A stretch of DNA of 64,000 nucleotides from a virus (IMGVR_UViG_3300025961_000012:13109-77108), one strand, 5' to 3'. Shown: positions 7,365-63,681, counted from the first letter of the stretch. Translations and numbers: made by a program. The notes: generated by a model not told the origin, from the letters alone.

Positions 7365-8396
7365 ATGCCTGGCCCGGACTGCTACGTCTTCCATGGTCCC
7401 AACTGGAGCCTTCCAGCGTGGGTGTATCAGGGCGAACTCAGGTCCGTGCGTCCACACCGCTCCCTGACGCGGCTCATGCGGCAGGCCCTGGATAAACGCT
7501 TGTCGGAACTCGGCACCAGCAACGGCCAGGATTGGTTCATCACCAAGACAGCGCTCAAAGACAACGCAGACAGATTGGAAGAAGGACTCCTTCCCGAAGA
7601 CGCGATTTCCTGGGTAAGCAATGTCGGCCGCGTCACGCTGACCGAACAGCCCAGGGACATGGAAGGCTTGTACGAGGAACTGGTCCGGGCAGGCTTCGCG
7701 AAAACAGTCCCCAAGGCGCAACTGCTCTACGGGATACTGTGCCAGCAGTTCCTTCACCGCATCGTCGTCGAGAACAAACCCGTGGATCTCGGGTTCGCCA
7801 AAATTCAGGCCACCCCATTGCGTTCAGATTTCATGAGGCTCTTTTCCGCGCATACAATGCGCCGCATCCTGTACGCATCTTCGAAGGAAAAGATCGTACG
7901 CCAGGCGCTCCGCGATGGGCGTCTCATGTTCCTTAACAAGACCAGGAAAATCGTTCTCTGGAACATTGCCGTGCGCCACAGTCACGCGTGGTGGCAGGGC
8001 ATCCGAAAATCTGAACTGGCCTTGTTGGCCCGACAGGGCAGAGTCCATTACCTGCTCAACGTGAAGGATCGGTTGCGTGCCGCGGAACCCATTCTCTATG
8101 AGATTTTCACGGATTACATTGCGCAAGCGCATCGGCCGGCTCTTTACATTCCTGCGCGCACTGGCAAACGCGATCACAAGAAACGCTTCGTCAAACCGTC
8201 CCTCAGAGCGGTTAAAAGACTTTTTAGCCTCCGCAAGAAACCTCGCACTGTGGCTGTTCCTGGGGAAACGGGCGCCACGTCACCTGTGGAGCAGCCGAAT
8301 GCGATCGTGCATGAGGTGCCAGGTGTACAATCGCCGCTTGCAGACGTGTGGCACTCCGGGGGAGACGTGGACAAACCCGCTGACAAAGAACACTGA
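7365..8396 (+). CDS. Hypothetical protein (343 aa)
   Basis: First ORF after the rightward promoter; globular-looking for ~250 aa; its last ~100 codons overlap the 8098-8562 ORF. Confidence 0.7.
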   Translation: MPGPDCYVFHGPNWSLPAWVYQGELRSVRPHRSLTRLMRQALDKRLSELGTSNGQDWFITKTALKDNADRLEEGLLPEDAISWVSNVGRVTLTEQPRDMEGLYEELVRAGFAKTVPKAQLLYGILCQQFLHRIVVENKPVDLGFAKIQATPLRSDFMRLFSAHTMRRILYASSKEKIVRQALRDGRLMFLNKTRKIVLWNIAVRHSHAWWQGIRKSELALLARQGRVHYLLNVKDRLRAAEPILYEIFTDYIAQAHRPALYIPARTGKRDHKKRFVKPSLRAVKRLFSLRKKPRTVAVPGETGATSPVEQPNAIVHEVPGVQSPLADVWHSGGDVDKPADKEH

Positions 8397-8562
8397 GCAG
8401 CTCGGCTGCTTGTGCTGGGCGCCGGCGAAAAGTTCGCTGAAGGATTCTGACTGCTGGCTATTCCAGAAAACGGGCGGTCAGGTGGAAGGGAGCGGGTGGA
8501 AGCCTGGCAAGAACGGTTCAGAGTTTGCGGGCTCCCACTTGGCGCGTAATCGCTTGCCCTGA
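8098..8562 (+). CDS. Cys-rich Zn-binding phage protein (DUF6171-like), overlapping the 3' end of 7365-8396 in the +1 frame
   Basis: RMRSCMRCQVYNRRLQTCG...LGCLCWAPAKSSLKDSDCW resembles the R..C..C....C...GC....K......C..W motif of small phage Cys proteins; ends 8 bp before the next gene. Confidence 0.6.
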   Translation: MRFSRITLRKRIGRLFTFLRALANAITRNASSNRPSERLKDFLASARNLALWLFLGKRAPRHLWSSRMRSCMRCQVYNRRLQTCGTPGETWTNPLTKNTEQLGCLCWAPAKSSLKDSDCWLFQKTGGQVEGSGWKPGKNGSEFAGSHLARNRLP

Positions 8563-8570
8563 CCGACTTT

Positions 8571-9038
8571 TTGGCGCATAGAGGCGTCGTGTCCACGGTC
8601 AAAGACAAGCCAATCGTTCTAAAGGTCGAGGTGCCTGGCAGCGGGAAGCCACTCAACGGCGCCGAAGGAGACGAGGCCGCCGCAGAACTCGGGCTGGCCC
8701 GCGTTTCAAACAAGCTCGTCAAAACCATGGCCCGGCTGGGCGTTGACATTGAACTGGCCGGCATCGTTCACACCGACCGCGGGTTCGCCTTCGCCACGAA
8801 GGAAGGGCTGTGGGAATGCGCCGATGCGCTCAAAGGGAAAATCAACAAGACCGCCAAGCTGGAGGATCTTTGCGAAATCGCGACGGCCCTCGGGAAGATC
8901 GCCAAAGGGATCTCCGTCCTGTCCGGTAAAAACATCGGCGGCGAGGACGCCCCCAAACCGCCCGACAAACCGCGGCAGTCTTTCGTCCCAGGCCAGACGG
9001 TCGAATTTCATCAACACACCCACCTCCACAAATCATGA
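8571..9038 (+). CDS. Hypothetical protein, possible terminase small subunit
   Basis: Helical core and a C-terminal QTVEFHQHTHLH tail like those of many small terminase subunits; near terL; start uncertain (TTG 8571 or GTG 8589). Confidence 0.4.
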   Translation: MAHRGVVSTVKDKPIVLKVEVPGSGKPLNGAEGDEAAAELGLARVSNKLVKTMARLGVDIELAGIVHTDRGFAFATKEGLWECADALKGKINKTAKLEDLCEIATALGKIAKGISVLSGKNIGGEDAPKPPDKPRQSFVPGQTVEFHQHTHLHKS

Positions 9039-9217
9039 AAACCTACGAATTGCGCCGAAACAAGCAACGCAAGTGGTATTACCACGTCAAACGCAAAGGC
9101 CGCATCCTCTACCACAGCGAAGCCTACAGCTCATTCTCCAAGGCGCACAAATCCGTGATCGCCGACACCAGGGATCGCGCGTACAAGATCGTGAAAGAGG
9201 GCAAAGTGATCGGATGA
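9035..9217 (+). CDS. YegP/DUF1508-like small protein
   Basis: YELRRNKQRKWYYHVKRKGRILYHSEAYSS..KA matches the DUF1508 F/YE....G.W.F.......I..SE.Y pattern. Confidence 0.65.
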   Translation: MKTYELRRNKQRKWYYHVKRKGRILYHSEAYSSFSKAHKSVIADTRDRAYKIVKEGKVIG

Positions 9218-9537
9218 GGTTGCTGGAGAAAATCAATCGCTTCCCGCCGCGTATCGTTCGGTTGATCGCCGCCGATCTCACGACGCGCCAGATCGCGCTG
9301 CGTTCCGGCATCCCGCGTTCGACCGTCCACCAGGTGTTTTTGAAGGATGACTGGAACCAGGTCACGAACGAAGTCACAGACCGGATCACCATGGCCTGTG
9401 GCGTCAACTTACTCACGCATAAGCGTCACAGGCAGAACCTGAAGAACCGGCTGCGATCGATTGGTAAGCTCGCCAAGAGGATCAAGCCGACCCAGCGGAA
9501 GATGTTGAACCGGTTGATGTCGGTCAAAGCCGCATAG
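9214..9537 (+). CDS. Helix-turn-helix DNA-binding protein
   Basis: LTTRQIALRSGIPRSTVHQV HTH; ATG at 9214 coupled to the upstream TGA. Confidence 0.7.
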   Translation: MRLLEKINRFPPRIVRLIAADLTTRQIALRSGIPRSTVHQVFLKDDWNQVTNEVTDRITMACGVNLLTHKRHRQNLKNRLRSIGKLAKRIKPTQRKMLNRLMSVKAA

Positions 9538-11445: not shown

Positions 11446-13845
11446 ATGATCGATGTCCGGATCCTAAAGAAACACGGCTGTTCCGCGGAGGCGTGGAGAA
11501 AAATCTTCGAAGGGCGTATTCGCGAGCGCCCGCAGCGAAAGAACGGCATCGTCGAGAAAACTGCCGCGCAAAAGGACAAGATTGACGCCCTGATGGAGCG
11601 TATCTGGGATCGAATTGTTTGCGGCCGGGACTGGAATTTCGCCAACTTCACCACGATCCACGCGATGGACCTGATCTGGGACGCCCCGTTCCGGCAGGTG
11701 AGTCCGACGCTGATTTCGTCCGTGTGCGCCAAGCACGGGAAGAACACTGAGGAGGTAAAGAGCGCCCTCAAGGGGCTGGGGTTGGATCTTGATTCGGTGC
11801 TCGTGCCGACAGACAAGCGCGACCCGAAGACGGGCGAATTGATCCAGGCCGTCAACGTCCCGAGCTTCTTTTCCGTCATGGTCCCGCTGGCGCGCGCCAT
11901 GGCAACGTCCCGCCGGGCGCGCATGATCAACGATCGGAACCGAGATCCGTTCTTCGAATTCAAGGCGGCCACTCAGAGCAAGCTGAACCGCGTGCGTTGC
12001 GAGGTGCTCACCAGCCGCATCCAGGAGACGTCCAAGGCGTACGACTATCTCGGCATCGTCAACCAGGCCGTGCTCCAGATGTTCCTTTACCCGACGGGCT
12101 GCCTGCTGTTCACGAAGGAGGAATATGATTCCTGCGAGCAAATGCGGCTCGACAAGGACGGCAAGGAGGAGAAATACATCGTCCGCGAGGGCCTCCGCTA
12201 CCACACGCCGCACCCGGCCCGGACGTATTGCGACATGGCGCACCCGATGCGCACGTTCAACACGGACACGGGTTGCGAGTTTGCCGGCCACTGGCAGGTC
12301 CTTCGCTATGGCGATATTTACGACAACGACGGGTTTTACAACAAGGACAAGATCAACATCGGCGGGCTGGGCTGGTTCAATTCATTCCCGTCCTTCTGGC
12401 AAACCGTCTACACGGGCTGCGCGCTGAAGATTCCAAGCGTCGATTTCACGGGGAAACCCGAGGATCGCGAGGAGTTCATCTCGAATTCGTTCTATAGCGG
12501 CGACATGCGCGATCATTCCGTGATGCTGTGCGAGCACCGCGAGAAACTGATCCCGAAGGATTGGGGGCTTGGCGATTACCAGTACCCGATCTGGTGCCGA
12601 TTCGTCGTGGCCGGCGACGGAACGATCGTTTACGCGGCGCCCATGGGCTACACGCCCGTGTGCGTGTTCAAGGACAACGGCGACGACAAGCGCGTGGCTG
12701 ATGCCTCGCTGGTGCTGCAGCTCGCTCCCTATCAGGACCAGCTCTCCAACCTGTTCACCCAGTTCCTGCTGGCTGTGAAACAGAATCTGGCGAATTTCAC
12801 GATGGTGGACGGGGCCATCGTCGACGACGCGACGATCAAGAAGCTCACCAACGACGGGGAAACCTATTTCCGCGGGCTGAACATTTTCCGTTACGACAGC
12901 AAGACCTTGTTCCGATTGCAGACCGACGCGCGGCAGGCCGTGATCTCACATCGTTTCGCGCCGATGGATATAAATGGCATTGTTTTGGCAATGAAATTGA
13001 CCATCGACATGGCCGAGCGCGTGTTGCAGTTCAGCGCCCAGGAAGTCGCCCAGGCGGCGAGCCACGAGCAGACCAAGGCCGAAATCGATCACGTTGCCGC
13101 CTCGACAACGAACATCGTTGAATACACCGGGATCCCGCTCGACGCCGGCATGAACGCGATGGCGCATCAGAATTACGAGGCGCTGATGAACTACGGCCAG
13201 GATGAGTTTTACGCGCAGATCCCCAGCGACCACGAACTGACCGAGGAACAGCTCACGGCTCTGGGCATCACCCAGGACGAGGACGACAAGGAAGAGACGC
13301 GCGACAAAAAGGTCCGCGTGAAGATCAAAAAGAAATCGGCGATGCAATTGGACAGCTTCGCCACCGTGCCACCGACCAACAAGCGGCAGACCAACTGGGA
13401 AGCTGCCCAGGCGATTTCGCAGTTCTACGCGACAATCCTCAACAATCCGGTCGTGCAGATGGCGCTCGGCCCGAAGCAAATGGTCGAGATCGCCAATCAA
13501 ATTGCCAAACTGGCCGGGTTACACTTGGACGCCGACCTGCGCGATATGACTGCCGAGAACCAGAAGAAACAGGCCAACGACCTGCTCAAGCAGGCTGTCG
13601 ATGCCGTTTTGGGCATTGTCCGAACCGAAACCAAGCAGGGTTTGGAGGTGATCATGTCCGAGATAAAAGACGTGACAATGAAGGTCGACGCGCTTACCAA
13701 GGCGTTCGCACAGCATGTTGCTTCAACTTCAAACCCGCTCGCTGGACCCGACGGAGGCGGCATCCCTCCAGTCATGGCTCCAGTCGCCCCAGTCGCTCCT
13801 GTTCCGGCAGTTGCTCCAAACCCAATGCTTGCTGGCGCAGTTTGA
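11446..13845 (+). CDS. Putative portal protein (799 aa)
   Basis: Size, position at the head of the portal-scaffold-capsid block, helical C-terminal region and Pro/Ala tail; no family-defining motif confirmed. Confidence 0.65.
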   Translation: MIDVRILKKHGCSAEAWRKIFEGRIRERPQRKNGIVEKTAAQKDKIDALMERIWDRIVCGRDWNFANFTTIHAMDLIWDAPFRQVSPTLISSVCAKHGKNTEEVKSALKGLGLDLDSVLVPTDKRDPKTGELIQAVNVPSFFSVMVPLARAMATSRRARMINDRNRDPFFEFKAATQSKLNRVRCEVLTSRIQETSKAYDYLGIVNQAVLQMFLYPTGCLLFTKEEYDSCEQMRLDKDGKEEKYIVREGLRYHTPHPARTYCDMAHPMRTFNTDTGCEFAGHWQVLRYGDIYDNDGFYNKDKINIGGLGWFNSFPSFWQTVYTGCALKIPSVDFTGKPEDREEFISNSFYSGDMRDHSVMLCEHREKLIPKDWGLGDYQYPIWCRFVVAGDGTIVYAAPMGYTPVCVFKDNGDDKRVADASLVLQLAPYQDQLSNLFTQFLLAVKQNLANFTMVDGAIVDDATIKKLTNDGETYFRGLNIFRYDSKTLFRLQTDARQAVISHRFAPMDINGIVLAMKLTIDMAERVLQFSAQEVAQAASHEQTKAEIDHVAASTTNIVEYTGIPLDAGMNAMAHQNYEALMNYGQDEFYAQIPSDHELTEEQLTALGITQDEDDKEETRDKKVRVKIKKKSAMQLDSFATVPPTNKRQTNWEAAQAISQFYATILNNPVVQMALGPKQMVEIANQIAKLAGLHLDADLRDMTAENQKKQANDLLKQAVDAVLGIVRTETKQGLEVIMSEIKDVTMKVDALTKAFAQHVASTSNPLAGPDGGGIPPVMAPVAPVAPVPAVAPNPMLAGAV

Positions 13846-14029
13846 GGCAGGCCAGGAGGCCACGAAGTGCGCCAACCTGCCGGCCGAGGTCATGGCCGCG
13901 GCGCTCAAGGAACACGTCGAGGCGGCGGATCGATTTGAGCGGATGCTCGACTACATGGATTCGCTGAAGTCCGGAAAGGTCGAGCCGAAGCTTTTGGTCA
14001 ACGCAACCCCTGAATCCCTACCGACATGA
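13715..14029 (+). CDS. Hypothetical helical protein overlapping the portal 3' end by 131 bp (+1 frame)
   Basis: Across the overlap this frame has G/C-ending codons (ctg gac ccg acg gag gcg) while the portal frame has A/T-ending Pro/Ala/Val codons; ATGA-coupled to 14026. Confidence 0.7.
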   Translation: MLLQLQTRSLDPTEAASLQSWLQSPQSLLFRQLLQTQCLLAQFEAGQEATKCANLPAEVMAAALKEHVEAADRFERMLDYMDSLKSGKVEPKLLVNATPESLPT

Positions 14030-15036: not shown

Positions 15037-15039
15037 TCT

Positions 15040-18552: not shown

Positions 18553-19452
18553 GTGAATTATTACAACGAGAACGATCCCAGGGCCGCTGCGTGGCTTCGG
18601 GAATTGATTCGCGCCGGGGAGATTTCAATGGGGGAAGTGGACGAGCGCAGTATAGTCGAAGTCAAAACTCATGAACTCAAAGGATATGCCCAATGCCATT
18701 GGTTTGCCGGAATTGGCGGTTGGTCTCTTGCCCTTCGACTTGCCAGATGGCCCGACGACAAGCCCGTCTGGACAGCCTCGCTCCCATGCCAACCATTCAG
18801 CACAGCCGGGGATCAGCGAGCGGAAGCGGACGAGCGCCACCTCTGGCCAGTGTTCGCCGAGCTTGTTCGGCACGGGCAGCCTTAAATCGCGTTTGGAGAG
18901 CAGGTTGCGAGCAAACTTGGACGTGAATGGCTCGCTGGAGTTCGAGATGATTTGGAAGGAATGGGGTATGAAGTCGGGGCTTCCGATCTGTGCGCTGCGA
19001 GCGTCGGAGCGCCGCACAGACGACAACGGCTCTACTGGGTGGCCCACTCCATCCGCGATCGACTCAGTTCGCGGGGTGGAGTCCAAGGAGGCGCGAAAGG
19101 CACGGGGATCACACACGGGCACGACGTTGAACGATGCGGCAGCAATGGCGCCCTGGCCGACGTGCAGCGCACGGGATTGGAAGGACACGCCGGGAATGGC
19201 GACAACGGGCACGAACCCGGACGGAACGGAGCGAACTCGCCTGGATCAATTGCCGCGAGTCGCAACCCTTGGGATTCCTACGACCTGCTCCCCTGCATCG
19301 ACGGAAAAGCGCGGCGCGTTGAACCCGGAACATTCCCGCTGGCTCATGGGGTACCCGGCCGCGTGGGGCTCCTGCGGGGATACGGGAATAGCATCGTGCC
19401 GCAAATCGCGGAAGTCTTCATCCGTTCCTGTGTCGAAGCCATAGGCATCTGA
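18553..19452 (+). pseudogene. dcm: C5-cytosine DNA methyltransferase (alpha chain) interrupted by an in-frame TAA at 18883-18885
   Basis: FAGIGG (motif I), LPCQPFS (IV), then QP*IAFGEQV (VI) in the same frame, APHRRQRLYWVA (VIII), LRGYGNSIVPQ (X). Confidence 0.85.
18671..19444 (+). CDS. Nested alternative-frame MTase subunit (EcoHK31I beta-like; TRD/motif IX)
   Basis: Intact 257-codon +1 frame with repeated WPTP/WPTC..RDWK boxes and LNPEHSRWLMGYP (motif IX-like, absent from the alpha frame); start may be later. Confidence 0.75.
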   Translation: MNSKDMPNAIGLPELAVGLLPFDLPDGPTTSPSGQPRSHANHSAQPGISERKRTSATSGQCSPSLFGTGSLKSRLESRLRANLDVNGSLEFEMIWKEWGMKSGLPICALRASERRTDDNGSTGWPTPSAIDSVRGVESKEARKARGSHTGTTLNDAAAMAPWPTCSARDWKDTPGMATTGTNPDGTERTRLDQLPRVATLGIPTTCSPASTEKRGALNPEHSRWLMGYPAAWGSCGDTGIASCRKSRKSSSVPVSKP

Positions 19453-42334: not shown

Positions 42335-42337
42335 CTT

Positions 42338-43031: not shown

Positions 43032-43158
43032 CAAGGCCGTCGTCAGGATGCCCATGGGCGTGCCGTTCACCCCCACGAACGGCAGCGGTTATTTCGTCCC
43101 CGACGCTCGAATGCAGGACATCCTGAAGCGCGGTTTGATTGGCACCAATGGCAACTGA
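42931..43158 (+). CDS. Putative o-spanin (Rz1-like lipoprotein) overlapping the i-spanin
   Basis: LMTLCLATGC lipobox; begins inside 42810-43031 in another frame, as in overlapped spanin pairs. Confidence 0.65.
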   Translation: MVTRARLTSFLMTLCLATGCGLLTKTRVRVIPADKAVVRMPMGVPFTPTNGSGYFVPDARMQDILKRGLIGTNGN

Positions 43159-45848: not shown

Positions 45849-45849
45849 C

Positions 45850-48800: not shown

Positions 48801-51800
48801 TGGAAGTATCCCCAATACCAATTACGACGGATATGGAATCCGGAAGCTCGAACATCTGATCTCGCTCAAGGGACTCGAGGCCATGGAGGATGGAGGTAGC
48901 GCAGCCATCATCCTGGGCGCAGCGCTTCACGAGAAGGAACAGGGCAAAGGCGCGCAGTGGATCTTCGAGAACTATCTGTATGGGCACTACAACGTCGTGG
49001 ACAATTTCGAGATCGCTGGCGATCTCTACGCCAAACAGGGCGCAAAGTTTCCGGTGCGGGTGCTCGTCATCGTGGGCCGGAAGGCAACGCCTGTAACCGG
49101 CGAGTTCGCCCCCAAACACGTTGATCGTCTCACAAACTGGGATGACGTTTGGGCGCGCGCAGAAAAGGCACGCAATGAAGCTGAAAGAATCCGATCAAGT
49201 CTGGGCACCGGTGGACCTGGACCAATATCTCCTGGTATTCCCGAAGGCGCACAGAAACCCGCCCCGGGACCAGGACTCGTTCCTGTTCGACCAGGTGAGA
49301 CTGCTGCGCCGGCTGGTGGAGGAGGCCTCCGACGGGGAAATCGAGGAGGGAAATCGACGGCTCCAGGAGGACCTACCGGCGTCGGAGAGCCTGTGGCTCC
49401 CGCCGGACCTGCTGCGCAACCCGGCAACGCCGGGCAACCTGCTCAACAACCCGGCGGAATTGGGCAGCCAACTCCACCAGTGGAAGGAAGGAGTAGCAGC
49501 GGCGCTGAGGATGAAGTCCCTCCCAGTGCTGGAGGCACGGAAGCTGGCGGAGGGACTAAGCCTGGAGTCGTTTCTAAGCCGGGTAATATAAAGGCCGCAG
49601 ACATCGGCGACTTGAGCCTCGATGACCTCGACGCTCTGCTTGCAGGCACGCCAGAAGAACAACCGCCACCGGCGCCCGCGCCTATACCTCCCGCTCCGGA
49701 AGCGCCCTATCACTACCCGCAGCCCCTGGAAGGGCAGCCTTACGAGCAACCGCCACAGGCGCCTTATGGCTATCCTGAACCACTGGAGGGGCAGCCTTAC
49801 GAAACAGAGAGGGCCACCACTCCGCGCCCGCCGCGGCCACCGAGGAAACCTCCGACTCAACCGCCGAAGAAACCGAAGCTTTCGGATGTCGGCAAACATC
49901 TCGTCGAGGGTGCCAAGTCATCGTTTGAAGCACTGGATCAATTGTTCGGCCGCGGGACGCACATGGGCGCCCTTGGTCCTACTTTCGACGAAAATACGTA
50001 TGCTGCGGCAAAGCCCCATTTTGCAAAGGCGTGGAGCGAATATGTGAAGGCTGGGGCGACCCTTCAGGAATACATCCAATACGTCCTGGGCCGATTCGGA
50101 AATGGCGTGAGGATTTATCTGAAACAGTTTTTGGCCGACATGCAGGAGGAGGCAAAGGCCAAAAAGGAAAAACCGAAGGCGACAGAAACGCAGATCCCAT
50201 ACGAGCAACGTGCAGAAGGATACTCGTTCGGGCTCCTGACACCCAGCAACATCGGAAATGGGACTCATGCTGCACTCGATGCGCTTAAAGCTCGCGTCGG
50301 TCCACTTACAGATTTTGTTGCAGACCGGCTGAACCAATCGCCAACGGAACTGCAAAAGGGACTTTCGGGAGAGCAGATTGACGGCGTGGCGCTGGCCATC
50401 GACCAGATCGAGAATGGCGGTGCGCTCATCATCGGCGACGAGACTGGCATCGGTAAAGGGCGCCAGGCGGCGGCCATCATTCGTTACGCGCATCTTCAGG
50501 GGAAGATACCCGTGTTTTTCACGAAGGACCCGAAGCTGTTCACCGACATGTACGGGGATCTCGCCGACATCGGGACAACGATTCGACCGCTCATTTTCGG
50601 CGATCCATCCAAGGCATCCATCGTGAACGAGAACGGTGATGTCATCGTCAAGGCGCCGACGAAGAAACGCCAGGATGCCATCATGCGCGACATCCAAGAG
50701 CGCGGAATACAGGCGGCTGGTTACGACGCCATCTTTTCGACCTATTCGCAGGTCAACGTCGAAAATGAGCGGCAGAGATTCCTTGAGGGGCTGGCCCATA
50801 ACCAGGACACCATCCTGATTCTCGACGAAGCGCACGAGGCGGCCGGCGACGGGGAATCCTCGATGCAGGCGGCATTCATGCAGGGCGGCCAAGTGAGGAG
50901 GGGCAGCGGCGCGGACCGCACGATCGTCAATAAGGTTGGGCTGTTGAACGCGCCGGGCACGGCGGAAGGCCGCGGCGGCGTCACTTACCTGAGTGCGACC
51001 TACGCAAAGCGGCCCGACAACACGCCCCTGTATTTCCGAACGGCACTCCGGAAGGCAGCGCAATCCTTCCAGCAGGTCGTCGATGCGATGAAGAAAGGCG
51101 GCGTGGCGCTCCAGCAGGCCGTCAGCGAAGCCCTTGCGGCAGCCGGCCAGTATGTCCGTCGGGAGCGGGATTTCAGTGGGGTCCGATACGAGCTGAAGAA
51201 AATCGCCGTTGCCGATGAGCCCGCGCTCGTGCAGCAGGTGGACGGAATCACGGATCTACTGGGCCAAATCGTTCAGTTCAGTCATTCCGTCCGTGAGGCT
51301 GCCCAATCCGCGGGCGGCGCAACCTCGACGGCGATGTCTGATAACGCCATCGACGTCGCGGATTTTGCAGCGCTGGTTCACAACCAGGTTGGCCAGCTTT
51401 TGCTTGCGGCGAAGGCTGACGAAGTAGTGAAGGAAGCTGCCGAGGCGCACTCCCGCGGTGAAAAGCCTGTCATCGCGTTGATGAACACGATGGAGAGTTT
51501 CCTCGATCAATATACGACCGAGCACAACATCAAGCCGGGCCAGCCGATTCAACTGCGGTGGCATGAGTTGCTCAGATACGCCTTGTCCCGCACGCTGCGA
51601 GGGAAGGTTCAACAGCCGAACGGCGATACGGTCATCGTTCAACTCACACCTGAGGAGCTGGGATTGAGTCCTCAGTTCGAGGCGATCATGGAGCAGATTG
51701 GAGAACTCGAGACGGAATTTCCTGTCAGCCCGATCGATTACATCGTGCAGCAGCTCGAGGCCAAGGGCGTCAAAACCGGTGAACTCACCGGGCGCACGAG

Positions 51801-54800
51801 CGGGATCAACTATACAGATGTCAAAGCCGGACAGGGCACCTACAAGCGGTTTCCGAAGGCCAACAAAAACACGCTGGTAAACGGATTCAATGGCGGCGTT
51901 CTCAATGGCTTGCTGTTAAATGCGAGCGGTTCAACCGGCCTCTCCATCCATGCGTCCGAAAAGTTCTTCGATAAGAAACCGCGGCACATGGTCATCGCCC
52001 AGCCGGCGCTCGACATCAATGTGTTCGTCCAGACGCTCGGGCGTATCAAACGCACGGGCATGGTGCTCAATGGCGAGAACCCCGACGGTTCGAAATGGGG
52101 CGCGCGCTACACGCATCTCGTGCTGCCGCTCCAGGCGGAGATGCGGCCGGCGGCCGTCACGAATCGGAAGATGAAGTCGCTCAACGCCAACACCACGGCG
52201 GAGAGCAAGAGCGGCGTGAAGATCGAGTCGGCCGATTTCCTTAACAAATACGGGGACGAAATTGTTTCCGAGTTTCTCGACGAGAATCGGGAGTGGCAAC
52301 CGCGGCTCGGGCTGTGGATCGACCATAATCAGGACGGCACGGTGAAGGTCCAGAACGACATCGCGCGCAAGTTCACCGGGCGTATGTCGCTGATGCCAAA
52401 CTCTCAGCAGGAGGAAGCCTACAATCAGATCATCCCAGCCTATAATGAATTGATCGACCGCCTGAAGACGACGGGCGAATACGACCTCGACATCGTTGTC
52501 CACAAGGACTGGGACGGCACGCAGTTAAGCGACGACCAGCTTGCCCCCGGCACCGACGAGTCATCGATCTTCACAGCGAGCGTGCGCGCACAGCGGTGGG
52601 AGATCACCGACAACCGGCACGTCCCGACCGGTGAGGAGATGCTTGAGGAATTCAACCGCCAGACTGGCGGCGTCGAGAAGCTTCGCGAGAACTGGCAGGC
52701 GCAGATCAGGGAAACGGAGAAGCAAATTAGAGATCGCATCGCAGCGGCTGACAAGGCAATCGACGAAGCGGCCAACGAACCGGATCCCACGAAGCGCGCA
52801 CTTCTGGCAGCGCGGGCACAGAATGAGATGACCGCGATGCTTCAGGCTCAGGCCAAATGGTCTGACACGAAGGACACGCTCAATCGCATCCTGTCCATGG
52901 CAGGGGATCCTGTGGAACTCGAGGACTCCGAGACCCACGAGACATTCGACGGGATGCTCGTCGGGTTCAAAATGCCGAACCTTGCCCGCGGGCTGCGCGT
53001 GTCACCGAGCGCCTACCACCTGCGCTATCTGATCGATGCCCCTGGTGGAAAGATGTTTCTGCGCGGGTCGATGTTCCCTTCGAAATGGACACAGAACCGT
53101 AGCGACCGTCCGCTTTCAGATTTCAAGGGCGCCCGGGCAGGCCAACGGTACGCGCGCTGGGTCGTCACTGGCAACCCGATCAAGGCTTACGAGGCAACTG
53201 GCGGCCGCGGGAAGATGGTGAGGTTCCAGTCGCGCGACGGGCAAACCATCACGGGGCTGATCATGCCGGTGAAGTGGGACATCTCGAAGCTGGCGAGTGA
53301 TCCGCGGCTCGAACTGGTGAGCGGCGCCGCCATTGCCAACTTCCTGCGCGCGCAACGCGGAGATCAGAATCATGCCGTGGAGAGCAAGAGCGGCATCGTC
53401 CGGATCAATCGCAGCAGCACAGGGGCCTATGCGATTTCCGTCCCGGCAGCCAGACGCACGGGAGGCGATTACTTCCTGGACCTTGCCCTGCGGAAGATCG
53501 TTGGGGACTTCAACAAGACCGGCGCTCGAATGCTGGCCCAGGTCGCGCCCGACAAACTCGTCGCGGCAGCCGATCGGGTCATGCAGATTGCCGGCGAGCG
53601 ACTTCGGGTGTCAGGCAAGGTCAGTCCGGAGATGATCAGCGTCATCGAGGCAGCCAACAAGCCAGGCGGCACAGCATCTGACGTCGCCAACAGGATTGCC
53701 GAGGCCCTCAACAGGCTGAAGTCCAACCGGCGCCCGGGCGATTTGCAGTTGTTCGGGCTGGTCCCGTTGGTCTGGGACAAGGCCATCGACATTGCCCGCG
53801 GCATCGTGCTCGCCGGCGGCAAGGTGGCTGACGCGGTGGCAAAGGCCATCGAATACATCCGGGCCAACCATAAGGGCGACTGGGATGAGGCCGGCGCGCG
53901 CGCGGCGCTCGAGACTGCCGCCCAGAAGCCTGCCGCCACGGAGGAAGGGCTTACCGAGCCAGCCGAAGGCGAACAACCACCTGTCGTGGACGATCACTGG
54001 GTTCCGACGCAGGTCAAAGGCGTGACGTGGTACGTGCGCGACCGGGACAAACTCTCCCCGGAGAGCACTGCCCGTTCAATCGATGCCGCCGAGGCTGCTT
54101 TTAAGGCAGCCGGGTTCGACTCTGAGCGCCGGACCATGTTCGACCAGGGCGATCACCAGACCAAAAGCATCCTGTTCATTCCGGAAACGGAGAACGCGGA
54201 CGAGAAGGGGCGCAAGCTGGCCGAGGTGCTCGAGCGCGAGATTGCGACCCAGCGCGAGGCCGGCAAGGGCGCCGATCACGTCTCGACCCTGATCAACTCT
54301 GTGCGTGAGGGCTTCGACCAGCCTGGATCCGCCTTCCGCCAGATGTCTCAGCAGGTCCGGAACCGGCTGTTTGCTCTCGCCCAAGAGGAAGCGAGCTGGC
54401 GCGGGCGCGCCCTGCGCGCGCTGGCCAATTCCAAGGCCGACATCATTCGCATCGCGCGCAACGTCGACGTCTACCTGCAGCGCATCTACTCGACGGCGTT
54501 TGCCGACAAGGCCCCAGGCGGCGCTGCGGGCGCCAGCGACATTGCTGACGACCTGCGTGCGTCACTGCGCGAGGTCCTGACCGACGAGGAAATCGACCGG
54601 CTACCGGAACTCATCGCGGATCCAGCCCAGCGTGAGCGCATCAAGGCTGCGCTCAAAAAGGCGCTGGAAAAGGTGGCGCCGAAAGGGGCTAAACGCTTTG
54701 GACGCAGGAACTGGCGCACAATCGAATCGCTCATCCAGGGCGGCATCCTCGACGATACCGAGTGGTTCAAGGATCTGGCGCGCAAACGGGGCTGGAAGGT

Positions 54801-57285
54801 CCCGACCGACGCCGAGATCGAACAGATGCGCAAGCTGGCTGACGAAGAGCAGGCGCTTCGAAAGCCGACCGACGCCGAGCTGGCCAAGGTCGGAGAGGAC
54901 CCGAAGGCGCGCGAACGGCTGTTGGCCGACATCGAGGCGGCCACCAGGGAGACGCGGTTCAAGCTGCAGAAGCGCCTGGCGGTGATGTGGAGCGAGATGA
55001 CGAAACCGGTGTCTCTGCGGAATTATTGGGCGCAAAGGCAGAATACCGCGCGGTTCCTGAACGAGCTGATGACGGCCAACCTGCTGTTTCGGGCGTCGTT
55101 CGTCAGCAAACAGGCTATTGACGTGGCGACGCAATGGTTCTGGAGGATGCCCATGAGGGCCATTGCCCAGGCGTTGACCTTGCGCAAGAACGACTTGGCT
55201 GCGGGCAAACAGGTTCGATTCTGGGATGACGCACAGGCGGCGCTTAAGGACATCTACGGTGATTCCATCAAAAGCCTGAAGGTAGCCACCGCGAAGGCGC
55301 GTGCGGCGCTCGCGGGGCGGGTGGAGATCCGGAACGTGGATCGTCTCATGGGCAGCGTATCCGCGCTCGACAGATTGTGGCTGCGTGCGGACCGCGCCGC
55401 GGAGGACGGGCGCAAGGCTGAGGCGTTTATGTGGCGCGCCGTGGCTGCCATCGGCTTCTCGTACAAGGTCGCCGGCGCGTTCGATTACCTGCATGGGACG
55501 CCAGCCGAGTGGAACGAGCGCCGTTTCCGCGTCATCGAAGCCCTCCGAGAGACCGGCGTGGACCCCGCGGCGGCTCGAGTGCAGGCCGGCTGGGTGATGG
55601 ACGGCGCCCTGGCTGAGTATCCAGAGGCAGTCGCCATGACGCGCTCGATGCTCGAAGCCCGCGGGATTCCGTTCACCGAGCAGCAGTTGCGCGAGGACGC
55701 GTGGAACATGGTCGAGCGCAGGCAATACCAGAGGATCGGCGATCTCGGGCTGCCCGTGGACGCCATTCGGGAACATTCGGAGCTGTATCGCAACACGCTG
55801 GGCTGGAACGAGCGCGAGATGCGCGGGCCTGGCGGGCTCGTCGGCACGCTCGTGCATGGGGTTGGCGCCATTGGGGAAGGCATAGGCATCCCTTTGGCCA
55901 TGGGCCGGTTCGGCAACGCCATCGCGATCGGCATCAACCGGCAGTTGCACAAGACGCCGCTGTACGCGCTGGCCAACATCCGCCTGCCGTTCCTCAGAGG
56001 GGGCCAAGAGCCGTCGCCGTGGTCGCGGACCATGACGGACATCTACGAACGGCGCCTCGAGGCTGTGGCCGGCACGATGCTGGGGAGTACCTTGCTGACA
56101 TTGGCTGCGGCCGGACTGCTCAAGGTCTGGCTCAAACCGCCGCCCGACAAGGAAGAGCGCGAGCTGTGGGAGCGCGAGGGGCACAAGGCGGGCACGGTCG
56201 AGATCCCCCTGGGCGACGGCAAATATCAGGTCTGGAGCCTCACCGCGGGGCCGTTCGCGCTCCTGGCGCCCTATCTGGCGGCCGGCGGGGCAATCAACGA
56301 TCTGACCGTCAAACGGGAGAAACAGCAGGCCAAGCTCAATGCTGAGGCGGCGAAGAAGGGGCTGACACCGGCTCAACTGCCACCACCGGACATCTCGGAC
56401 TGGTTTGGTGTGGCCGCCCAGGCTGCCCAAGCATCTGTCCTCGGAAATCGAACGGCGTCCGGCTGGTTCAACAGCGTCACTGACTACGGCACACCCAACG
56501 TGAAGAAGTTCGTGGCCAGCCAGTTCACGCCCATGGTGCCCGGCTTGCCGGCATTGCAGGAGGTTTCCCGCATGGCCGGCGTCATAATCGACCCGAAAAA
56601 GGCCGATGTCATGGATTTCCTAGTGCCGTTGCCGACCTCCAAAGCGCGCAAATACAACATGCTCGGGGATCCGGTGGGCACCCAGGACGACCTGCAGCGC
56701 GTCGTCCAGACGCTCACGGGCGGCACGTATCCGTCCATCTCGCCGGGCCAGGCGCACGAGGCGGACGCCTACAAGGCGCTCTTCGCCACCGGTTACAGGC
56801 CTCCGAGCATCGACCCGAACGCGGGGCATGCCATCGGCGGGGACTTCAGGCCATTCACCGAGTCCGAACTGGAGCGCTACACGGACGCGCGCAGCCGGAA
56901 TCTGCGTGAAGAACTCGGCCGGCTGGGCCCCACGGCTAGCGCCAAGGACGCCCGGGAGGCGTACCAGCGCGCGAACGACGCGGCGCTGCGGGAGACTGGT
57001 GTCACGGTCGCCACCAGGACGACAACGCCCAGCGGCGCCACGGTCACGAGGGTAGCGTCGTCCCGTGGAGGCGTGGGAGTTCCGACCAGGACGACGGAAG
57101 CCCGAAGTGGGACCGGCGGCAGGGCAGCGCGCGGCAGATTGTCACGCGGGCTGCGTGGAGTGCGATTTGGACGGCGGGGGTTGGCCCGGGCTTCAAGGCT
57201 TCGGCTGCAACCGCGGCTCGGGCGCGGACGCACACGCGGATTGTCGCGCGCACGAGTCAGTTCTGCTCGTTCTGCTCGGGTTTGA
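45850..57285 (+). CDS. Giant DarB-like polyvalent protein: N6-adenine MTase, Strawberry-notch SF2 helicase, LPD38-like C-terminus (~3,811 aa)
   Basis: VYDATAGNGML (motif I) and HLNPPF (motif IV) near 48.6-48.8 kb; GDETGIGKGRQ, LDEAH, YLSAT, NASGSTGLSIHA, QTLGRIKRTG helicase motifs; helical C-terminal third; likely start MPAVFVDE at 45850. Confidence 0.9.
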   Translation: MPAVFVDEEPQAHFVDDAGPAEGRAKFLEDLPAPTPPPIPAEQIRMTLEPGVTEGKSAEQADIERANKIGAPQVELNKQSAPFNLREHLSMARERPSDKLQYWAQRIPWSPAGIIQPLEVKSAADRIQAGIGEPKDFEKLSDFIVSAERQQNAGVISKAVDIATALPAFAAEFSATGGAFTGTRAAAQRAGLAALEESAKAVAGKAARYVATKAAEAPAFIAGAAAQTLANPKLIAENFVQNELNRVKFKEGDQGQIETIIKDDDVGFAGNLRNSFLKAGFDIGTEYAGELLHPLKAAIAARWMNAVPGRTPGALQKALDASGWHGVLGEMFEERLNEFAAPLYGENYQPPSPQQLMAEALAFSVPGTAERLLSGRGPAIEKGKENATTQRTEQPRTQRGEANAGIQPVGENRVNQPVEQPPRAPDSERNRVPPGEVPPQVETPPGTPVTTKAPLAVRILTARGVAPDVAEFVAARAGDKPANETAEDYRTRVNGLHDEFGFKVPTEVNPASSEASLRASAAAEGFTEEQIQNTLAKAKAADTAVHAANTALIGRIQAARQPATVTPEPPTAPPTLPDVAARFLPEDARRLLQEHAGNIANASAALGQIVQRHLDSGGQAILYVDGKAVPIVQAENGMLRDKKNQQWGTMPLFTGRTSQNRLDLLPISATKAPVPATIPPVVATKPLVGETEADLRERILGPPKDAPQEVVLERLKARLLEAKNDGGEGGGFHASGAWFDIGINFPTPGKSYINGRGITINVPTADLKRGDLSNAEILIGGKKTQIEDIAEKLPKAPLPKEEGVKPPEVNSEQAIRDLIDSPETTAQKSVKMRQMAEAAGIELKAMQERVEAVLVKMANEIARNEGLRPTTRFHALVNLYERQPLFSARTSTSVADQAYSTPAPIAFALRHMTGVTSQTPVYDATAGNGMLLLGSKLGESVANEINPNRAQALRDLGVGTVTQNDATKFVPAEDSPVVHLNPPFGSIPNTNYDGYGIRKLEHLISLKGLEAMEDGGSAAIILGAALHEKEQGKGAQWIFENYLYGHYNVVDNFEIAGDLYAKQGAKFPVRVLVIVGRKATPVTGEFAPKHVDRLTNWDDVWARAEKARNEAERIRSSLGTGGPGPISPGIPEGAQKPAPGPGLVPVRPGETAAPAGGGGLRRGNRGGKSTAPGGPTGVGEPVAPAGPAAQPGNAGQPAQQPGGIGQPTPPVEGRSSSGAEDEVPPSAGGTEAGGGTKPGVVSKPGNIKAADIGDLSLDDLDALLAGTPEEQPPPAPAPIPPAPEAPYHYPQPLEGQPYEQPPQAPYGYPEPLEGQPYETERATTPRPPRPPRKPPTQPPKKPKLSDVGKHLVEGAKSSFEALDQLFGRGTHMGALGPTFDENTYAAAKPHFAKAWSEYVKAGATLQEYIQYVLGRFGNGVRIYLKQFLADMQEEAKAKKEKPKATETQIPYEQRAEGYSFGLLTPSNIGNGTHAALDALKARVGPLTDFVADRLNQSPTELQKGLSGEQIDGVALAIDQIENGGALIIGDETGIGKGRQAAAIIRYAHLQGKIPVFFTKDPKLFTDMYGDLADIGTTIRPLIFGDPSKASIVNENGDVIVKAPTKKRQDAIMRDIQERGIQAAGYDAIFSTYSQVNVENERQRFLEGLAHNQDTILILDEAHEAAGDGESSMQAAFMQGGQVRRGSGADRTIVNKVGLLNAPGTAEGRGGVTYLSATYAKRPDNTPLYFRTALRKAAQSFQQVVDAMKKGGVALQQAVSEALAAAGQYVRRERDFSGVRYELKKIAVADEPALVQQVDGITDLLGQIVQFSHSVREAAQSAGGATSTAMSDNAIDVADFAALVHNQVGQLLLAAKADEVVKEAAEAHSRGEKPVIALMNTMESFLDQYTTEHNIKPGQPIQLRWHELLRYALSRTLRGKVQQPNGDTVIVQLTPEELGLSPQFEAIMEQIGELETEFPVSPIDYIVQQLEAKGVKTGELTGRTSGINYTDVKAGQGTYKRFPKANKNTLVNGFNGGVLNGLLLNASGSTGLSIHASEKFFDKKPRHMVIAQPALDINVFVQTLGRIKRTGMVLNGENPDGSKWGARYTHLVLPLQAEMRPAAVTNRKMKSLNANTTAESKSGVKIESADFLNKYGDEIVSEFLDENREWQPRLGLWIDHNQDGTVKVQNDIARKFTGRMSLMPNSQQEEAYNQIIPAYNELIDRLKTTGEYDLDIVVHKDWDGTQLSDDQLAPGTDESSIFTASVRAQRWEITDNRHVPTGEEMLEEFNRQTGGVEKLRENWQAQIRETEKQIRDRIAAADKAIDEAANEPDPTKRALLAARAQNEMTAMLQAQAKWSDTKDTLNRILSMAGDPVELEDSETHETFDGMLVGFKMPNLARGLRVSPSAYHLRYLIDAPGGKMFLRGSMFPSKWTQNRSDRPLSDFKGARAGQRYARWVVTGNPIKAYEATGGRGKMVRFQSRDGQTITGLIMPVKWDISKLASDPRLELVSGAAIANFLRAQRGDQNHAVESKSGIVRINRSSTGAYAISVPAARRTGGDYFLDLALRKIVGDFNKTGARMLAQVAPDKLVAAADRVMQIAGERLRVSGKVSPEMISVIEAANKPGGTASDVANRIAEALNRLKSNRRPGDLQLFGLVPLVWDKAIDIARGIVLAGGKVADAVAKAIEYIRANHKGDWDEAGARAALETAAQKPAATEEGLTEPAEGEQPPVVDDHWVPTQVKGVTWYVRDRDKLSPESTARSIDAAEAAFKAAGFDSERRTMFDQGDHQTKSILFIPETENADEKGRKLAEVLEREIATQREAGKGADHVSTLINSVREGFDQPGSAFRQMSQQVRNRLFALAQEEASWRGRALRALANSKADIIRIARNVDVYLQRIYSTAFADKAPGGAAGASDIADDLRASLREVLTDEEIDRLPELIADPAQRERIKAALKKALEKVAPKGAKRFGRRNWRTIESLIQGGILDDTEWFKDLARKRGWKVPTDAEIEQMRKLADEEQALRKPTDAELAKVGEDPKARERLLADIEAATRETRFKLQKRLAVMWSEMTKPVSLRNYWAQRQNTARFLNELMTANLLFRASFVSKQAIDVATQWFWRMPMRAIAQALTLRKNDLAAGKQVRFWDDAQAALKDIYGDSIKSLKVATAKARAALAGRVEIRNVDRLMGSVSALDRLWLRADRAAEDGRKAEAFMWRAVAAIGFSYKVAGAFDYLHGTPAEWNERRFRVIEALRETGVDPAAARVQAGWVMDGALAEYPEAVAMTRSMLEARGIPFTEQQLREDAWNMVERRQYQRIGDLGLPVDAIREHSELYRNTLGWNEREMRGPGGLVGTLVHGVGAIGEGIGIPLAMGRFGNAIAIGINRQLHKTPLYALANIRLPFLRGGQEPSPWSRTMTDIYERRLEAVAGTMLGSTLLTLAAAGLLKVWLKPPPDKEERELWEREGHKAGTVEIPLGDGKYQVWSLTAGPFALLAPYLAAGGAINDLTVKREKQQAKLNAEAAKKGLTPAQLPPPDISDWFGVAAQAAQASVLGNRTASGWFNSVTDYGTPNVKKFVASQFTPMVPGLPALQEVSRMAGVIIDPKKADVMDFLVPLPTSKARKYNMLGDPVGTQDDLQRVVQTLTGGTYPSISPGQAHEADAYKALFATGYRPPSIDPNAGHAIGGDFRPFTESELERYTDARSRNLREELGRLGPTASAKDAREAYQRANDAALRETGVTVATRTTTPSGATVTRVASSRGGVGVPTRTTEARSGTGGRAARGRLSRGLRGVRFGRRGLARASRLRLQPRLGRGRTRGLSRARVSSARSARV
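47006..47197 (+). CDS. Nested small basic phage protein (MPLRKG... family) in the +1 frame inside the giant gene
   Basis: MPLRKGPNSHGHNVEKLMREYNQSGKIGSTNPSSSHHALRIANAIAYRLEKSPRK resembles the recurrent MPL.KG....N...L...GK......A.AIA phage microprotein; AAGGT upstream of the ATG. Confidence 0.65.
   Translation: MPLRKGPNSHGHNVEKLMREYNQSGKIGSTNPSSSHHALRIANAIAYRLEKSPRKSKLRRGRR
49175..49591 (+). CDS. Nested 138-aa helical protein in the +1 frame inside the giant gene's Gly/Pro linker
   Basis: This frame shows genome-typical G/C-ending codons (gtg gac ctg gac...ctg ctg cgc cgg ctg gtg gag gag) while the host frame switches to GGA/GGT/CCT/CCA; AAAGG upstream of the ATG. Confidence 0.7.
   Translation: MKLKESDQVWAPVDLDQYLLVFPKAHRNPPRDQDSFLFDQVRLLRRLVEEASDGEIEEGNRRLQEDLPASESLWLPPDLLRNPATPGNLLNNPAELGSQLHQWKEGVAAALRMKSLPVLEARKLAEGLSLESFLSRVI
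49699..49803 (+). repeat. Imperfect tandem repeat encoding APYxYPxPLEGQPYE twice
   Basis: EAPYHYPQPLEGQPYE and QAPYGYPEPLEGQPYE, 57-bp period. Confidence 0.8.
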
Positions 57286-62421: not shown

Positions 62422-62423
62422 GT

Positions 62424-63016: not shown

Positions 63017-63081
63017 AGCGTTCCGACATCCTGCGCAATTGTCAAGCGGCGAGTTGACAACCCGGCGAAATCGTGGACACT
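63017..63081. promoter_or_regulatory. Divergent promoter pair
   Basis: Leftward CCGCTTGACAA (63049-63039)-AACGCT (63022-63017), ATG 9 nt later; rightward TTGACA (63054-63059)-N16-GACACT, ATG at 63088 6 nt later. Confidence 0.75.
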
Positions 63082-63087
63082 CGCGCC

Positions 63088-63276
63088 ATGAGCCGACGAC
63101 ACAAAGTAAATGTTCAGGTCACGAAAGAGGGCAAGGATTACGAAAAGGATCTGAGCGCGAAGAAACTGACGGACCAGGAGATCCGCGACCATCTCCCGCA
63201 GGTCTGGAAGGACCGCAGCGAAGCCGGCAAACGCGCGGTGTCCGTTCCGATCCCAGGGACGCCGCACTACACGTAG
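63088..63276 (+). CDS. Hypothetical basic protein (62 aa)
   Basis: Leaderless-type start after the rightward promoter. Confidence 0.7.
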   Translation: MSRRHKVNVQVTKEGKDYEKDLSAKKLTDQEIRDHLPQVWKDRSEAGKRAVSVPIPGTPHYT

Positions 63277-63278
63277 GA

Positions 63279-63659
63279 ATGGCGAACTTCTTCAAAGACT
63301 GGACTCCGGAAAAAGTCCGACAGCACAATGAGCGCGTTAAAACTCGTCATCCAGGGAATCGGCAGACCGTCCTCTTTCAAGAACTCGAAGATGATTTGCC
63401 AGCCGAAAGGCTACAGCCGTCCAATTCTGATTACCGACCCGAAGATCCGAAAGTGGATGGACAAGGCAACCCGTCTTATCGAATCGCAATTACGGTCCTG
63501 GTTAGCGACTACAGGGACCTCGACCTCGACGGATGCGGAAGTACGATCCAAGATTGTATCATCGCTGCCACTGGAAGACTCTTACGTTTGGGTCGAGTCG
63601 ATCTCCGTAAACTGGCGAAGAGTCAGGAAAGGCGAAGAGGGCGCCGAGATCGTCATTGA
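63279..63659 (+). CDS. RusA-like resolvase, chain carrying the central catalytic DLD...D segment
   Basis: YRIAITVLVSDYRDLDLDGCGSTIQDCI aligns without gaps to E. coli RusA [28 protein letters not shown] (recalled sequence). Confidence 0.65.
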   Translation: MANFFKDWTPEKVRQHNERVKTRHPGNRQTVLFQELEDDLPAERLQPSNSDYRPEDPKVDGQGNPSYRIAITVLVSDYRDLDLDGCGSTIQDCIIAATGRLLRLGRVDLRKLAKSQERRRGRRDRH

Positions 63660-63681
63660 ACGGATAGCGCCGCAGCCTTAG
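63328..63681 (+). CDS. RusA-like resolvase, chain carrying the N-terminal strand/helix and the C-terminal DD-strand region
   Basis: LKLVIQGIGRPSSFKN...KIRKWMDKATRLI resembles the RusA N-terminus; LEDSYVWV...RRVRKGEEGAEIVIER resembles LDDAQVV...MPVTKGGRLELTITE. Confidence 0.65.
   Translation: MSALKLVIQGIGRPSSFKNSKMICQPKGYSRPILITDPKIRKWMDKATRLIESQLRSWLATTGTSTSTDAEVRSKIVSSLPLEDSYVWVESISVNWRRVRKGEEGAEIVIERIAPQP

Follow-up and report, generated by a model that had tools for sequence, protein, structure and literature searches.

Overlapping gene pairs and the background of open frames

The stretch of DNA analyzed here (the window) is 64,000 nucleotides (nt) long and comprises bases 13109-77108 of the IMG/VR virus record IMGVR_UViG_3300025961_000012, itself 77,108 nt long and judged 98% complete. 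A first-pass annotation of the window had listed seven same-strand overlaps with protein-like sequence in both frames, and an open reading frame (ORF) reading recovered all seven ORF pairs, each on one strand and in differing frames, which we numbered pair 1 (8098-8396), pair 2 (13715-13845), pair 3 (18671-19444), pair 4 (42931-43031), pair 5 (47006-47197), pair 6 (49175-49591), and pair 7 (63328-63659). The protein-like character of both frames stood only in part, as at most positions amino-acid selection acts on a single frame and the other does no more than stay open.

GC content ranges from 0.52 to 0.63 across the window, with values by codon position of about 0.60/0.47/0.71 in its true genes, and a search of the window for transfer RNA genes found none. 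No close relative was found among deposited phages, and a megablast of the giant gene that holds pair 6 against phages gave no match. Two complete 78-kb relatives, G005 and G006, whose portal-sized proteins are 39–40% identical to that of the window, share pairs 1, 2, 6, and 7 with it.

Open alternative frames are common in this DNA. Across 32 long genes, 62 same-strand alternative-frame stretches of at least 100 codons were stop-free, compared with 35.2 ± 4.6 expected under a null made by resampling synonymous codons in those genes; 14 such stretches reached at least 150 codons, and the giant gene alone contained 19 open +1-frame stretches of at least 70 codons. Thus, ORF length by itself proves nothing here, and independent evidence must decide. 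One such line of evidence was a codon-usage scan, in which pairs 3, 5, 6, and 7 were the only places inside genes where a stop-free same-strand alternative frame outscored the main one; all remaining flags were located at gene boundaries.

A C5 DNA methyltransferase gene probably read in two frames

Pair 3 consists of the following two frames:

18553..19452, + strand: alpha frame of a C5 DNA methyltransferase, with motifs I, IV, VI, VIII, and X, interrupted by a TAA at 18883-18885
18671..19444, + strand: beta ORF, 257 amino acids (aa), +1 frame, fully nested in alpha, with W-P-T-P repeats and a motif-IX-like segment (LNPEHSRWLMGYP)

The catalytic motifs of a large methyltransferase chain can be read directly in alpha (FAGIGG, PCQPFS, GEQV, PHRRQR, and GNSIVPQ), which matched PF00145 (E 3e-7) and, over both of its halves, phrog_363 (E 9e-39 and 7e-23). 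An alpha profile aligned with residues 71-177 of M.HhaI (E 3e-17), with motif I aligned weakly. Beta matched a family distinct from that of alpha, phrog_1008 (E 3e-21), as well as phrog_31772, both of which are labelled “DNA methyltransferase”; its segment LNPEHSRWLMGYP looks, by reading and not by alignment to a solved enzyme, like the region that carries motif IX in ordinary enzymes. When each frame was used as a tblastn query, the same loci were found in 230 and 234 phage records, with two frames there as well, and the carriers (~230 phage records) included phages of Escherichia, Klebsiella, Rhodobacter, Burkholderia, and Xanthomonas. Annotation of these loci is uneven, with both coding sequences called in K1ind2, only the outer one in N15, and only the inner one in Cr-LKS3.

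Selection on the two frames was assessed in 68 distinct loci among the 80 found in IMG/VR. No stop occurs in the outer frame of these loci, whereas stops average 0.76 in the +1 frame and 9.6 in the +2 frame; the +1 frame, again nested in the other, is open over a median of 942 of 1014 nt. Inner ATG codons recur at +88, +106, and +118 and are often preceded by AAGGAG. Entropy by codon position carries the outer-frame signature over 18553-19032 and the inner-frame signature over 19153-19272, and is flattened over 18853-19032 and 19273-19392. Where the outer frame alone is selected, the inner frame was stop-free in 65 of the 68 loci, compared with 10.3 expected, and a control frame fitted the null.

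The TAA that interrupts alpha is a TCA in L005, the closest and near-identical relative; the change is a single C-to-A substitution that reads as Q-to-K in beta, which stays open. Also relative to L005 (1712-2150), unrelated sequence, longer by 52 nt, takes the place of a block of ~150 nt within the variable region selected in the beta frame (window 19150-19300), with identical DNA on both flanks, which looks like the swap of a specificity module by recombination.

A small gene within a giant polyvalent gene

Pair 6 lies inside the longest gene discussed here:

45784..57285, + strand: giant ORF of 3,833 codons (the protein of the record starts at ATG 45850), with a methylase-like part and a Strawberry-notch-type helicase
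49175..49591, + strand: nested 138-aa ORF, +1 frame, in the linker between the methylase-like and helicase parts

The giant protein matched PF13872 (E 4e-24) and PF13871 (E 5e-9), and its phage matches are annotated as N-6 DNA methylase; it is a polyvalent protein in which a DNA-methylase-like part and a SWI2/SNF2-clade ATPase share one giant ORF. It has 82 long homologues of 2,500–6,500 aa, and its closest relative (P0024) is 76% identical and lies on a 78,147-nt Logan contig. Related loci were retrieved with an alignment as query, a single stretch of the giant protein having found none. At 57004-57285, the last ~90 codons of the giant ORF form an Arg/Gly-rich tail in which the +2 frame outscores the main frame, and a similar R/G-rich tail is present in the consensus of homologous giant proteins.

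At the linker, the main frame is G/P-rich, with GC by codon position of 0.77/0.70/0.40, and the +1 frame has normal codon usage. A tblastn search with the 138-aa ORF matched the +1 frame of 12 homologous giant-gene loci, representing 10 distinct sequences, with E-values between 1e-15 and 8e-38, better than those of the main-frame linker. All 17 giant-gene loci, low-GC ones included, have a +1 ORF at the same place with a conserved Met start, and the main frame is stop-free in all 17; the ORF is kept in low-GC relatives whose main frame lacks the G/P richness. Its start, its stop, and its length are conserved, as is a C-terminal L-[ST]-L-E-[SG]-F-L before the stop in those loci with detectable homology to the window's ORF. 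The signature of selection, measured as variability by codon position, turns to the +1 frame at 49189 and returns to the main frame at 49594, both points being only a few codons away from the ORF borders. A full HMMER search reached 78 protein clusters, mostly of ~137-aa proteins aligned end to end, and AlphaFold2 (AF2) modelled the protein from 49 sequences with a predicted local distance difference test (pLDDT) score of 97.3 and a predicted template modelling (pTM) score of 0.90. Neither Foldseek (PDB, BFVD) nor VIA-align (48,161 chains; best Z 3.0) gave a credible fold relative, and a literature search found no description of a gene nested in such a giant phage gene.

A RusA-like gene probably read in two frames

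Pair 7 is formed by two ORFs of similar length:

63279..63659, + strand: f2 ORF, 126 aa, with its own ATG 49 nt upstream of f0, an N-terminal W-T..E..Y motif, a filler, and a RusA-like catalytic segment (S-D-x-R-x-R-D-x-D-G)
63328..63681, + strand: f0 ORF, 117 aa, with a conserved N-terminal SFKNSK..KWM..IESQLRS and C-terminal LPL[DE]DS..W...KGEEGA.I.IE, and a filler between them

The f0 protein has 22 full-length homologues, and the f2 frame is open across the gene in 31 loci, in which the third frame has 4–14 stops. The W-T..E..Y motif of f2 is conserved in singly coded DNA, and f2 ends shortly before f0. Over f0 codons 2-48, f2 was stop-free in 29 of the 31 loci, compared with 4.9 expected. 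Along the DNA, the codon-position signature assigns selection to f0 at 63328-63447, then to a mixed stretch, then to f2 at 63508-63567, and again to f0 at 63568-63657. A conserved f0 helix and an f2 strand use the same nucleotides (63477-63501), which favors two chains over a single one made by frameshifting. Three contigs (G002-G004) carry the RusA-like pair without a homologue of the giant protein.

The catalytic segment is the link to RusA. In f2, residues D82, D84, and D92 vary little or not at all and align with DRRRRDLD...D of RusA (1q8r), which was the sole match of the f2 profile in the PDB, at E 0.31. Against phrog_34, the f2 ORFs of relatives matched over the catalytic segment at E 0.003–0.03, and chimeras read by hopping from f0 to f2 and back to f0 in two relatives (L112 and L117) reached it with E-values of 2e-6 and 5e-6, the matches spanning profile positions 119-192. 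The chimeric reading lifts the phrog_34 match from 18 to 29 bits, with an alignment that crosses the second frame junction. Profile hidden Markov models (HMMs) of f0 only gave no match to E. coli RusA, and a chimera HMM reached only 15.4 bits; tblastn of f0 and f2 against phage records returned only noise. The data support a RusA-like enzyme that would be divided between frames and that may belong to the RusA family. A literature search for a nested RusA found nothing relevant.

Terminal overlaps

In pairs 1 and 2, the overlap joins the end of one gene to the beginning of the next:

7365..8396, + strand: pair 1 gene A, 343 aa, with a positive coding score and an unconserved Pro-rich C-terminal third that overlaps gene B
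8098..8562, + strand: pair 1 gene B, ~154 aa, start uncertain (ATG 8098 or GTG 8077), hydrophobic in its N-terminal part and with a conserved Cys-rich domain at the C-terminus
11446..13845, + strand: pair 2 upstream gene, 799 aa, in the structural module, portal-sized, adjoining the terminase
13715..14029, + strand: pair 2 downstream gene, 104 aa, starting 131 nt inside the 799-aa gene

Gene B overlaps gene A by ~300–320 nt. Homologues of the gene A N-terminus occur in G006 and G005 in the same arrangement, with an ATG-started ORF of 159–161 aa that overlaps gene A by 326 and 383 nt, respectively, and a gene A length of 343–386 aa across the three genomes. Gene B found its counterparts by tblastn at E 5e-14 (G006) and 8e-12 (G005), with the Cys-rich C-terminal domain conserved.

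The 799-aa protein of pair 2 also has homologues in G005 and G006 (39–40% identity). Its last 43 codons make a G/P/A/V-rich tail, with an atypical GC by position of 0.79/0.64/0.40, that comes from the alternative frame of the next gene; the overlap measures 131 nt in the window, 119 in G006, and 44 in G005. The overlapping N-terminus of the 104-aa protein is homologous in all three genomes (M..PLP....WL..P...F), and the coding signature within the overlap belongs to this downstream frame, so that the G/P/A tail of the 799-aa protein is the by-product. A near-identical relative, G001 (L085), was uninformative for pair 2, with one difference in 430 nt, and neither Pfam nor PHROGs yielded a match to the proteins of pairs 1 and 2.

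Spanin-like pair and candidate fourth nested gene

Pairs 4 and 5 involve smaller ORFs:

42810..43031, + strand: i-spanin-like protein, 73 aa, whose hydrophobic N-terminus (MWATAVKLALSVLGFFF), a putative membrane helix, is read directly; its ATG overlaps the stop of the preceding gene
42907..43158 (likely start 42931), + strand: o-spanin-like putative lipoprotein, +1 frame, whose signal, also by direct reading, ends in L-A-T-G-C; it runs past the stop of its partner
47006..47197, + strand: candidate nested 63-aa basic ORF (MPLRKG...), +1 frame of the giant gene

By its architecture, pair 4 looks like a candidate pair of overlapped spanins. Of the lipobox consensus [LVI][ASTVI][GAS]C, positions −2 and −1 fit the o-spanin-like protein and position −3 is Ala, not L/V/I; deviant lipoboxes have been listed alongside the definition of the overlapped spanin architecture (PMC6139136). 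Directly upstream (42637-42810), a 57-aa ORF also has a lipoprotein-type signal (…LIGSGC), making two small lipoprotein candidates at the locus. The region 36000-44000 is a low-GC island (0.52 compared with ~0.60) that holds ORFs of 1,453 aa (35776-40137) and of 456 aa with atypical codon usage (40134-41504) in addition to the small genes around pair 4. It has no counterpart in G005 and G006, which suggests an exchanged module for host interaction and lysis.

The 63-aa ORF of pair 5 was flagged by the codon scan with a margin of 13.6 and is preceded by AAAGG. ORFs with an “MP..” start are found in the +1 frame at the same place in G006 and G005, and that of G006 matches phrog_2423 (E 1.5e-7); a word-based homologue search with the window's own ORF returned no candidate. 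The odds that 47006-47197 is a fourth nested gene are about even. Differing small basic +1 ORFs with an MP start also lie upstream of the methylase part in other giant polyvalent genes (L132:4412-4582, L133:1516-1686, and L120:5225-5482; MPKGYEEMRDRF... and MPIVSKAQ...), and small nested genes at this place may be common in giant genes and of several unrelated kinds.

Other frame changes in the window

Two further loci resemble overlaps. The apparent 310-nt overlap of two long ORFs at 31803-33401 and 33092-35404 arises only because the longest ORF was taken in each case, as the second frame acquires its coding signature only near 33400. At 14220-15299, the coding signature lies in frame 2 from 14220 to ~14830 and then in frame 0 (ORF 14635-15036), and frame 2 runs on past ~14830 as a junk tail, rich in Arg, up to 15299. 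Inspected by eye, the parts of 14220-15036 resemble the two halves, N-terminal and C-terminal, of a phosphoesterase of the DHH/DHHA1 type (DHH...GGGGH); a Pfam search of both parts of 14220-15299 returned no match, and G001 lacks the region. This pattern suggests a single frameshift in a gene that is broken or recoded, not a case of nesting.

Probable interleaved coding and its alternatives

Taken together, the account set out in this paragraph, to which we give a probability near 80%, is one of real same-strand overlaps of three kinds, namely three nested pairs, two long terminal overlaps, and one spanin-like overlap. Conservation of the second frame was recovered for the nested pairs 3, 6, and 7 and the terminal pairs 1 and 2, and not for pair 4, for which no homologues were found, or pair 5, which is unproven. 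In the nested pairs (18553-19452, 49175-49591 within 45784-57285, and 63279-63681), two proteins would be made from one stretch of mRNA through independent initiation in two frames. Coding would be interleaved rather than fully double, with amino-acid selection passing from the outer to the inner and back to the outer frame along the DNA, and with the unselected frame serving as a low-complexity filler that only has to stay stop-free. In the methyltransferase, the outer protein would supply motifs I-VIII along with X, and the inner protein the variable W-P-T-P region and the motif-IX-like segment; in the RusA-like gene, the catalytic acidic segment sits in one ORF and the flanking conserved segments in the other, such that the two products would assemble into one nuclease. 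The inner ORF of the giant gene probably encodes an independent, well-folded 138-aa protein, the same bases being read in the outer frame as a G/P-rich linker. At the terminal overlaps (8098-8396 and 13715-13845), the conserved N-terminus of the downstream protein would be read in the other frame as a disordered C-terminal tail of the upstream protein.

One alternative is that in this GC-rich DNA the second frames are open by chance, being neither conserved nor translated. Long open stretches are indeed common in this genome, as given above, and a G/P/A-rich main frame lowers the stop frequency and raises the third-position GC of the +1 frame, mimicking coding; pairs 4 and 5 also have no firm conservation. 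Against this, the inner frames of pairs 3, 6, and 7 are conserved as protein at 30–50% identity across dozens of loci with conserved starts and stops, are open far above the calibrated synonymous null, and have their own third-position variability, which refutes chance for these three pairs. The pair 6 ORF persists in relatives of low GC that lack a G/P-rich main frame, and the N-termini or ORF layouts of pairs 1 and 2 recur in relatives at ~25–40% identity. As a general account, chance frames are thus very unlikely. We give even less credence to the idea that the frame changes stem from errors of assembly or from recent frameshift mutations, leaving broken versions of single-frame genes, even though the alpha frame does have a nonsense codon in the window record and the gene at 14220-15036, which changes coding frame once, may be truly frameshifted. 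The same layouts with both frames intact appear in independent assemblies (80 IMG/VR methylase loci, 31 RusA-like loci, and 17 giant-gene loci), the methylase layout occurs in cultured, finished genomes (N15 and K1-ind phages), and the uninterrupted 11.5-kb giant ORF argues against an error-prone assembly.

A more serious, if still improbable, competitor is that each pair yields one polypeptide through two programmed frameshifts, outer to inner and back to outer, giving an ordinary single-chain methyltransferase, RusA, or giant protein. Such a mechanism would fit the outer-inner-outer alternation of the selected segments, the better scores of the RusA-like chimeras than of either ORF against phrog_34, and the motif order I-VIII / IX-like / X, which is that of ordinary C5 methyltransferases. 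To our knowledge, no double frameshift of this outer-inner-outer kind has been described. The inner frames, however, are open far outside their selected cores and have their own conserved start codons, and the N-terminal motif of f2 is conserved upstream of the outer ORF altogether. The 138-aa gene has a conserved stop and is called elsewhere as a stand-alone protein of ~137 aa, and one chain cannot hold both the f0 helix and the f2 strand that share bases in pair 7. For M.EcoHK31I, two separate chains have been demonstrated (PMC2836561).

We therefore favor overlapping genes with separate products, and several observations weigh against this interpretation. Conservation, openness, and selection signatures are observed, and it is from these that we infer, on sequence grounds, translation of the second frames and assembly of their products. 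The loci compared are related by descent, so that locus counts overstate independence. The window's methyltransferase may be inactive, as alpha is truncated by the TAA, and neither beta ATG 18671 nor f2 ATG 63279, which AGGA directly abuts, has a clear Shine-Dalgarno sequence. For the RusA-like pair, the chimera of the window itself did not reach phrog_34 and found no RusA family, Pfam RusA (PF05866) detected nothing in f0, in f2, in the genome read in six frames at E up to 10, or in the hop-read chimeras, and AF2 of f2 alone gave a pLDDT of 71 with the strand region not modelled, too weak for a fold search. No homologues of pair 4 were found in searches that included Pfam, PHROGs, spanin families, and G005/G006, and none of its neighbours (small membrane or lipoproteins) matched an endolysin family. 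Finally, the “MP..” ORFs of the two relatives are only weakly similar to the window's 63-aa ORF (E 0.024 and 0.002).

Interleaved coding would fit an origin of the methylase and RusA-like pairs by a frame change (gene fission) within a once single-frame gene, rather than by de novo birth. The first-pass annotation had seen in overprinting a design of this viral lineage, one that might fix the stoichiometry of partners, resist gene loss, or conceal functions; dual-frame coding does recur in the genome, with three nested, two terminal, one spanin-like, and one candidate case, and yet the arrangements belong to cassettes that are widespread in unrelated phages (methylase, ~230 records; RusA-like pair, 31 contigs; 138-aa protein, 78 clusters). 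They are thus inherited module by module with these gene cassettes, not as a lineage strategy. Nor did nesting protect the methyltransferase pair from decay, since a single C-to-A change stopped alpha and left beta open. Two other expectations were borne out, namely that two overlaps divide one enzyme between frames, which is clear for the methylase and supported for the RusA-like gene through the relatives' chimeras, and that gene callers miss most of these genes. Five of the seven second-frame ORFs have no called record, as beta, the 138-aa ORF, the 63-aa ORF, f2, and the pair 1 B ORF are absent as exact sequences from a collection of 15 billion proteins, and the 104-aa gene of pair 2 is called on long contigs only as 66 aa, 38 residues short.

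Long same-strand nested genes have been treated as rare curiosities and are suppressed by gene finders; here, one phage genome shows three, each of a family that tens to hundreds of other phage sequences share, with the methylase known from biochemistry. A selected frame and a filler that switch along the gene would explain how long overlaps stay cheap to keep, and offer a practical search rule, namely flips of codon usage or third-position variability inside long ORFs. Many “hypothetical linkers” and “junk-like variable regions” of phages may hide genes, and phage methyltransferase and resolvase annotations would be systematically incomplete. The 138-aa protein is an obvious candidate for a partner or regulator of the injected anti-restriction polyvalent proteins.

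Comparison with known systems

The spanin-like pair shares the layout of overlapped two-component spanins such as those of phage P2 (Kongari et al. 2018, PMC6139136), in which a gene for a membrane-helix protein is followed by a +1-frame lipoprotein gene that starts inside it and ends beyond it. Pair 4 also lies among genes for small membrane proteins, and its i-spanin-like protein is short (73 aa) by comparison. The giant protein resembles polyvalent proteins with a methylase-helicase dyad (DarB-like; Iyer et al. 2017, PMC5512222), which are giant multidomain phage proteins with an adenine-methylase-like part and a Strawberry-notch/SWI2-SNF2-type ATPase, as in the window. A conserved gene in the linker between domains is not part of the DarB-like description, the text of which contains none of the words “overlapping,” “frameshift,” or “linker.”

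RusA (E. coli DLP12, PDB 1q8r; phrog_34) has a catalytic D-R-R-R-R-D-L-D-x followed by a D-D segment and terminal strands, and the RusA-like pair shows the same order; like RusA, the pair sits among replication and recombination genes in relatives. Whereas RusA is one chain of 120 aa read in one frame, the conserved segments of the RusA-like pair alternate between ORFs of 117 and 126 aa. In overprinted viral genes, a second ORF occupies an alternative frame and one product tends to be compositionally biased or disordered (PMC8227390). Unlike in those genes, the inner ORF in two of the three nested pairs would hold an ancestral piece of the same enzyme, not a novel protein. Neither the RusA-like pair nor the 138-aa nested gene was found described in the literature searched.

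The closest precedent is M.EcoHK31I of E. coli HK31 (Lee, Kam and Shaw 1995, per PMC2836561), in which the whole of beta lies in a second frame of the alpha gene and carries motif IX, both chains being needed for activity. The smaller subunit lies wholly inside the gene of the larger one, which is the layout at 18553-19452. In M.EcoHK31I, the target-recognition domain is also part of the alpha chain (PMC2836561), whereas in the window it is the beta frame in which the hypervariable region and the W-P-T-P repeats are read and selected; the window's beta is also long (257 aa) and its alpha cut by a TAA, unlike M.EcoHK31I, and the likeness to that enzyme is one of layout. With these differences, the putative methyltransferase at 18553-19452 is a new member of the known M.EcoHK31I-type alpha/beta design. 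Beyond this assignment, we lean, by a modest margin over even odds, toward a broader view, in which these genes form an undescribed class of “frame-interleaved” phage genes, comprising a RusA-like resolvase with fold elements spread over two ORFs that must assemble and a 138-aa protein nested in a DarB-like linker, and in which M.EcoHK31I-type methylases would be the first known example of a general design, with selection alternating between frames.

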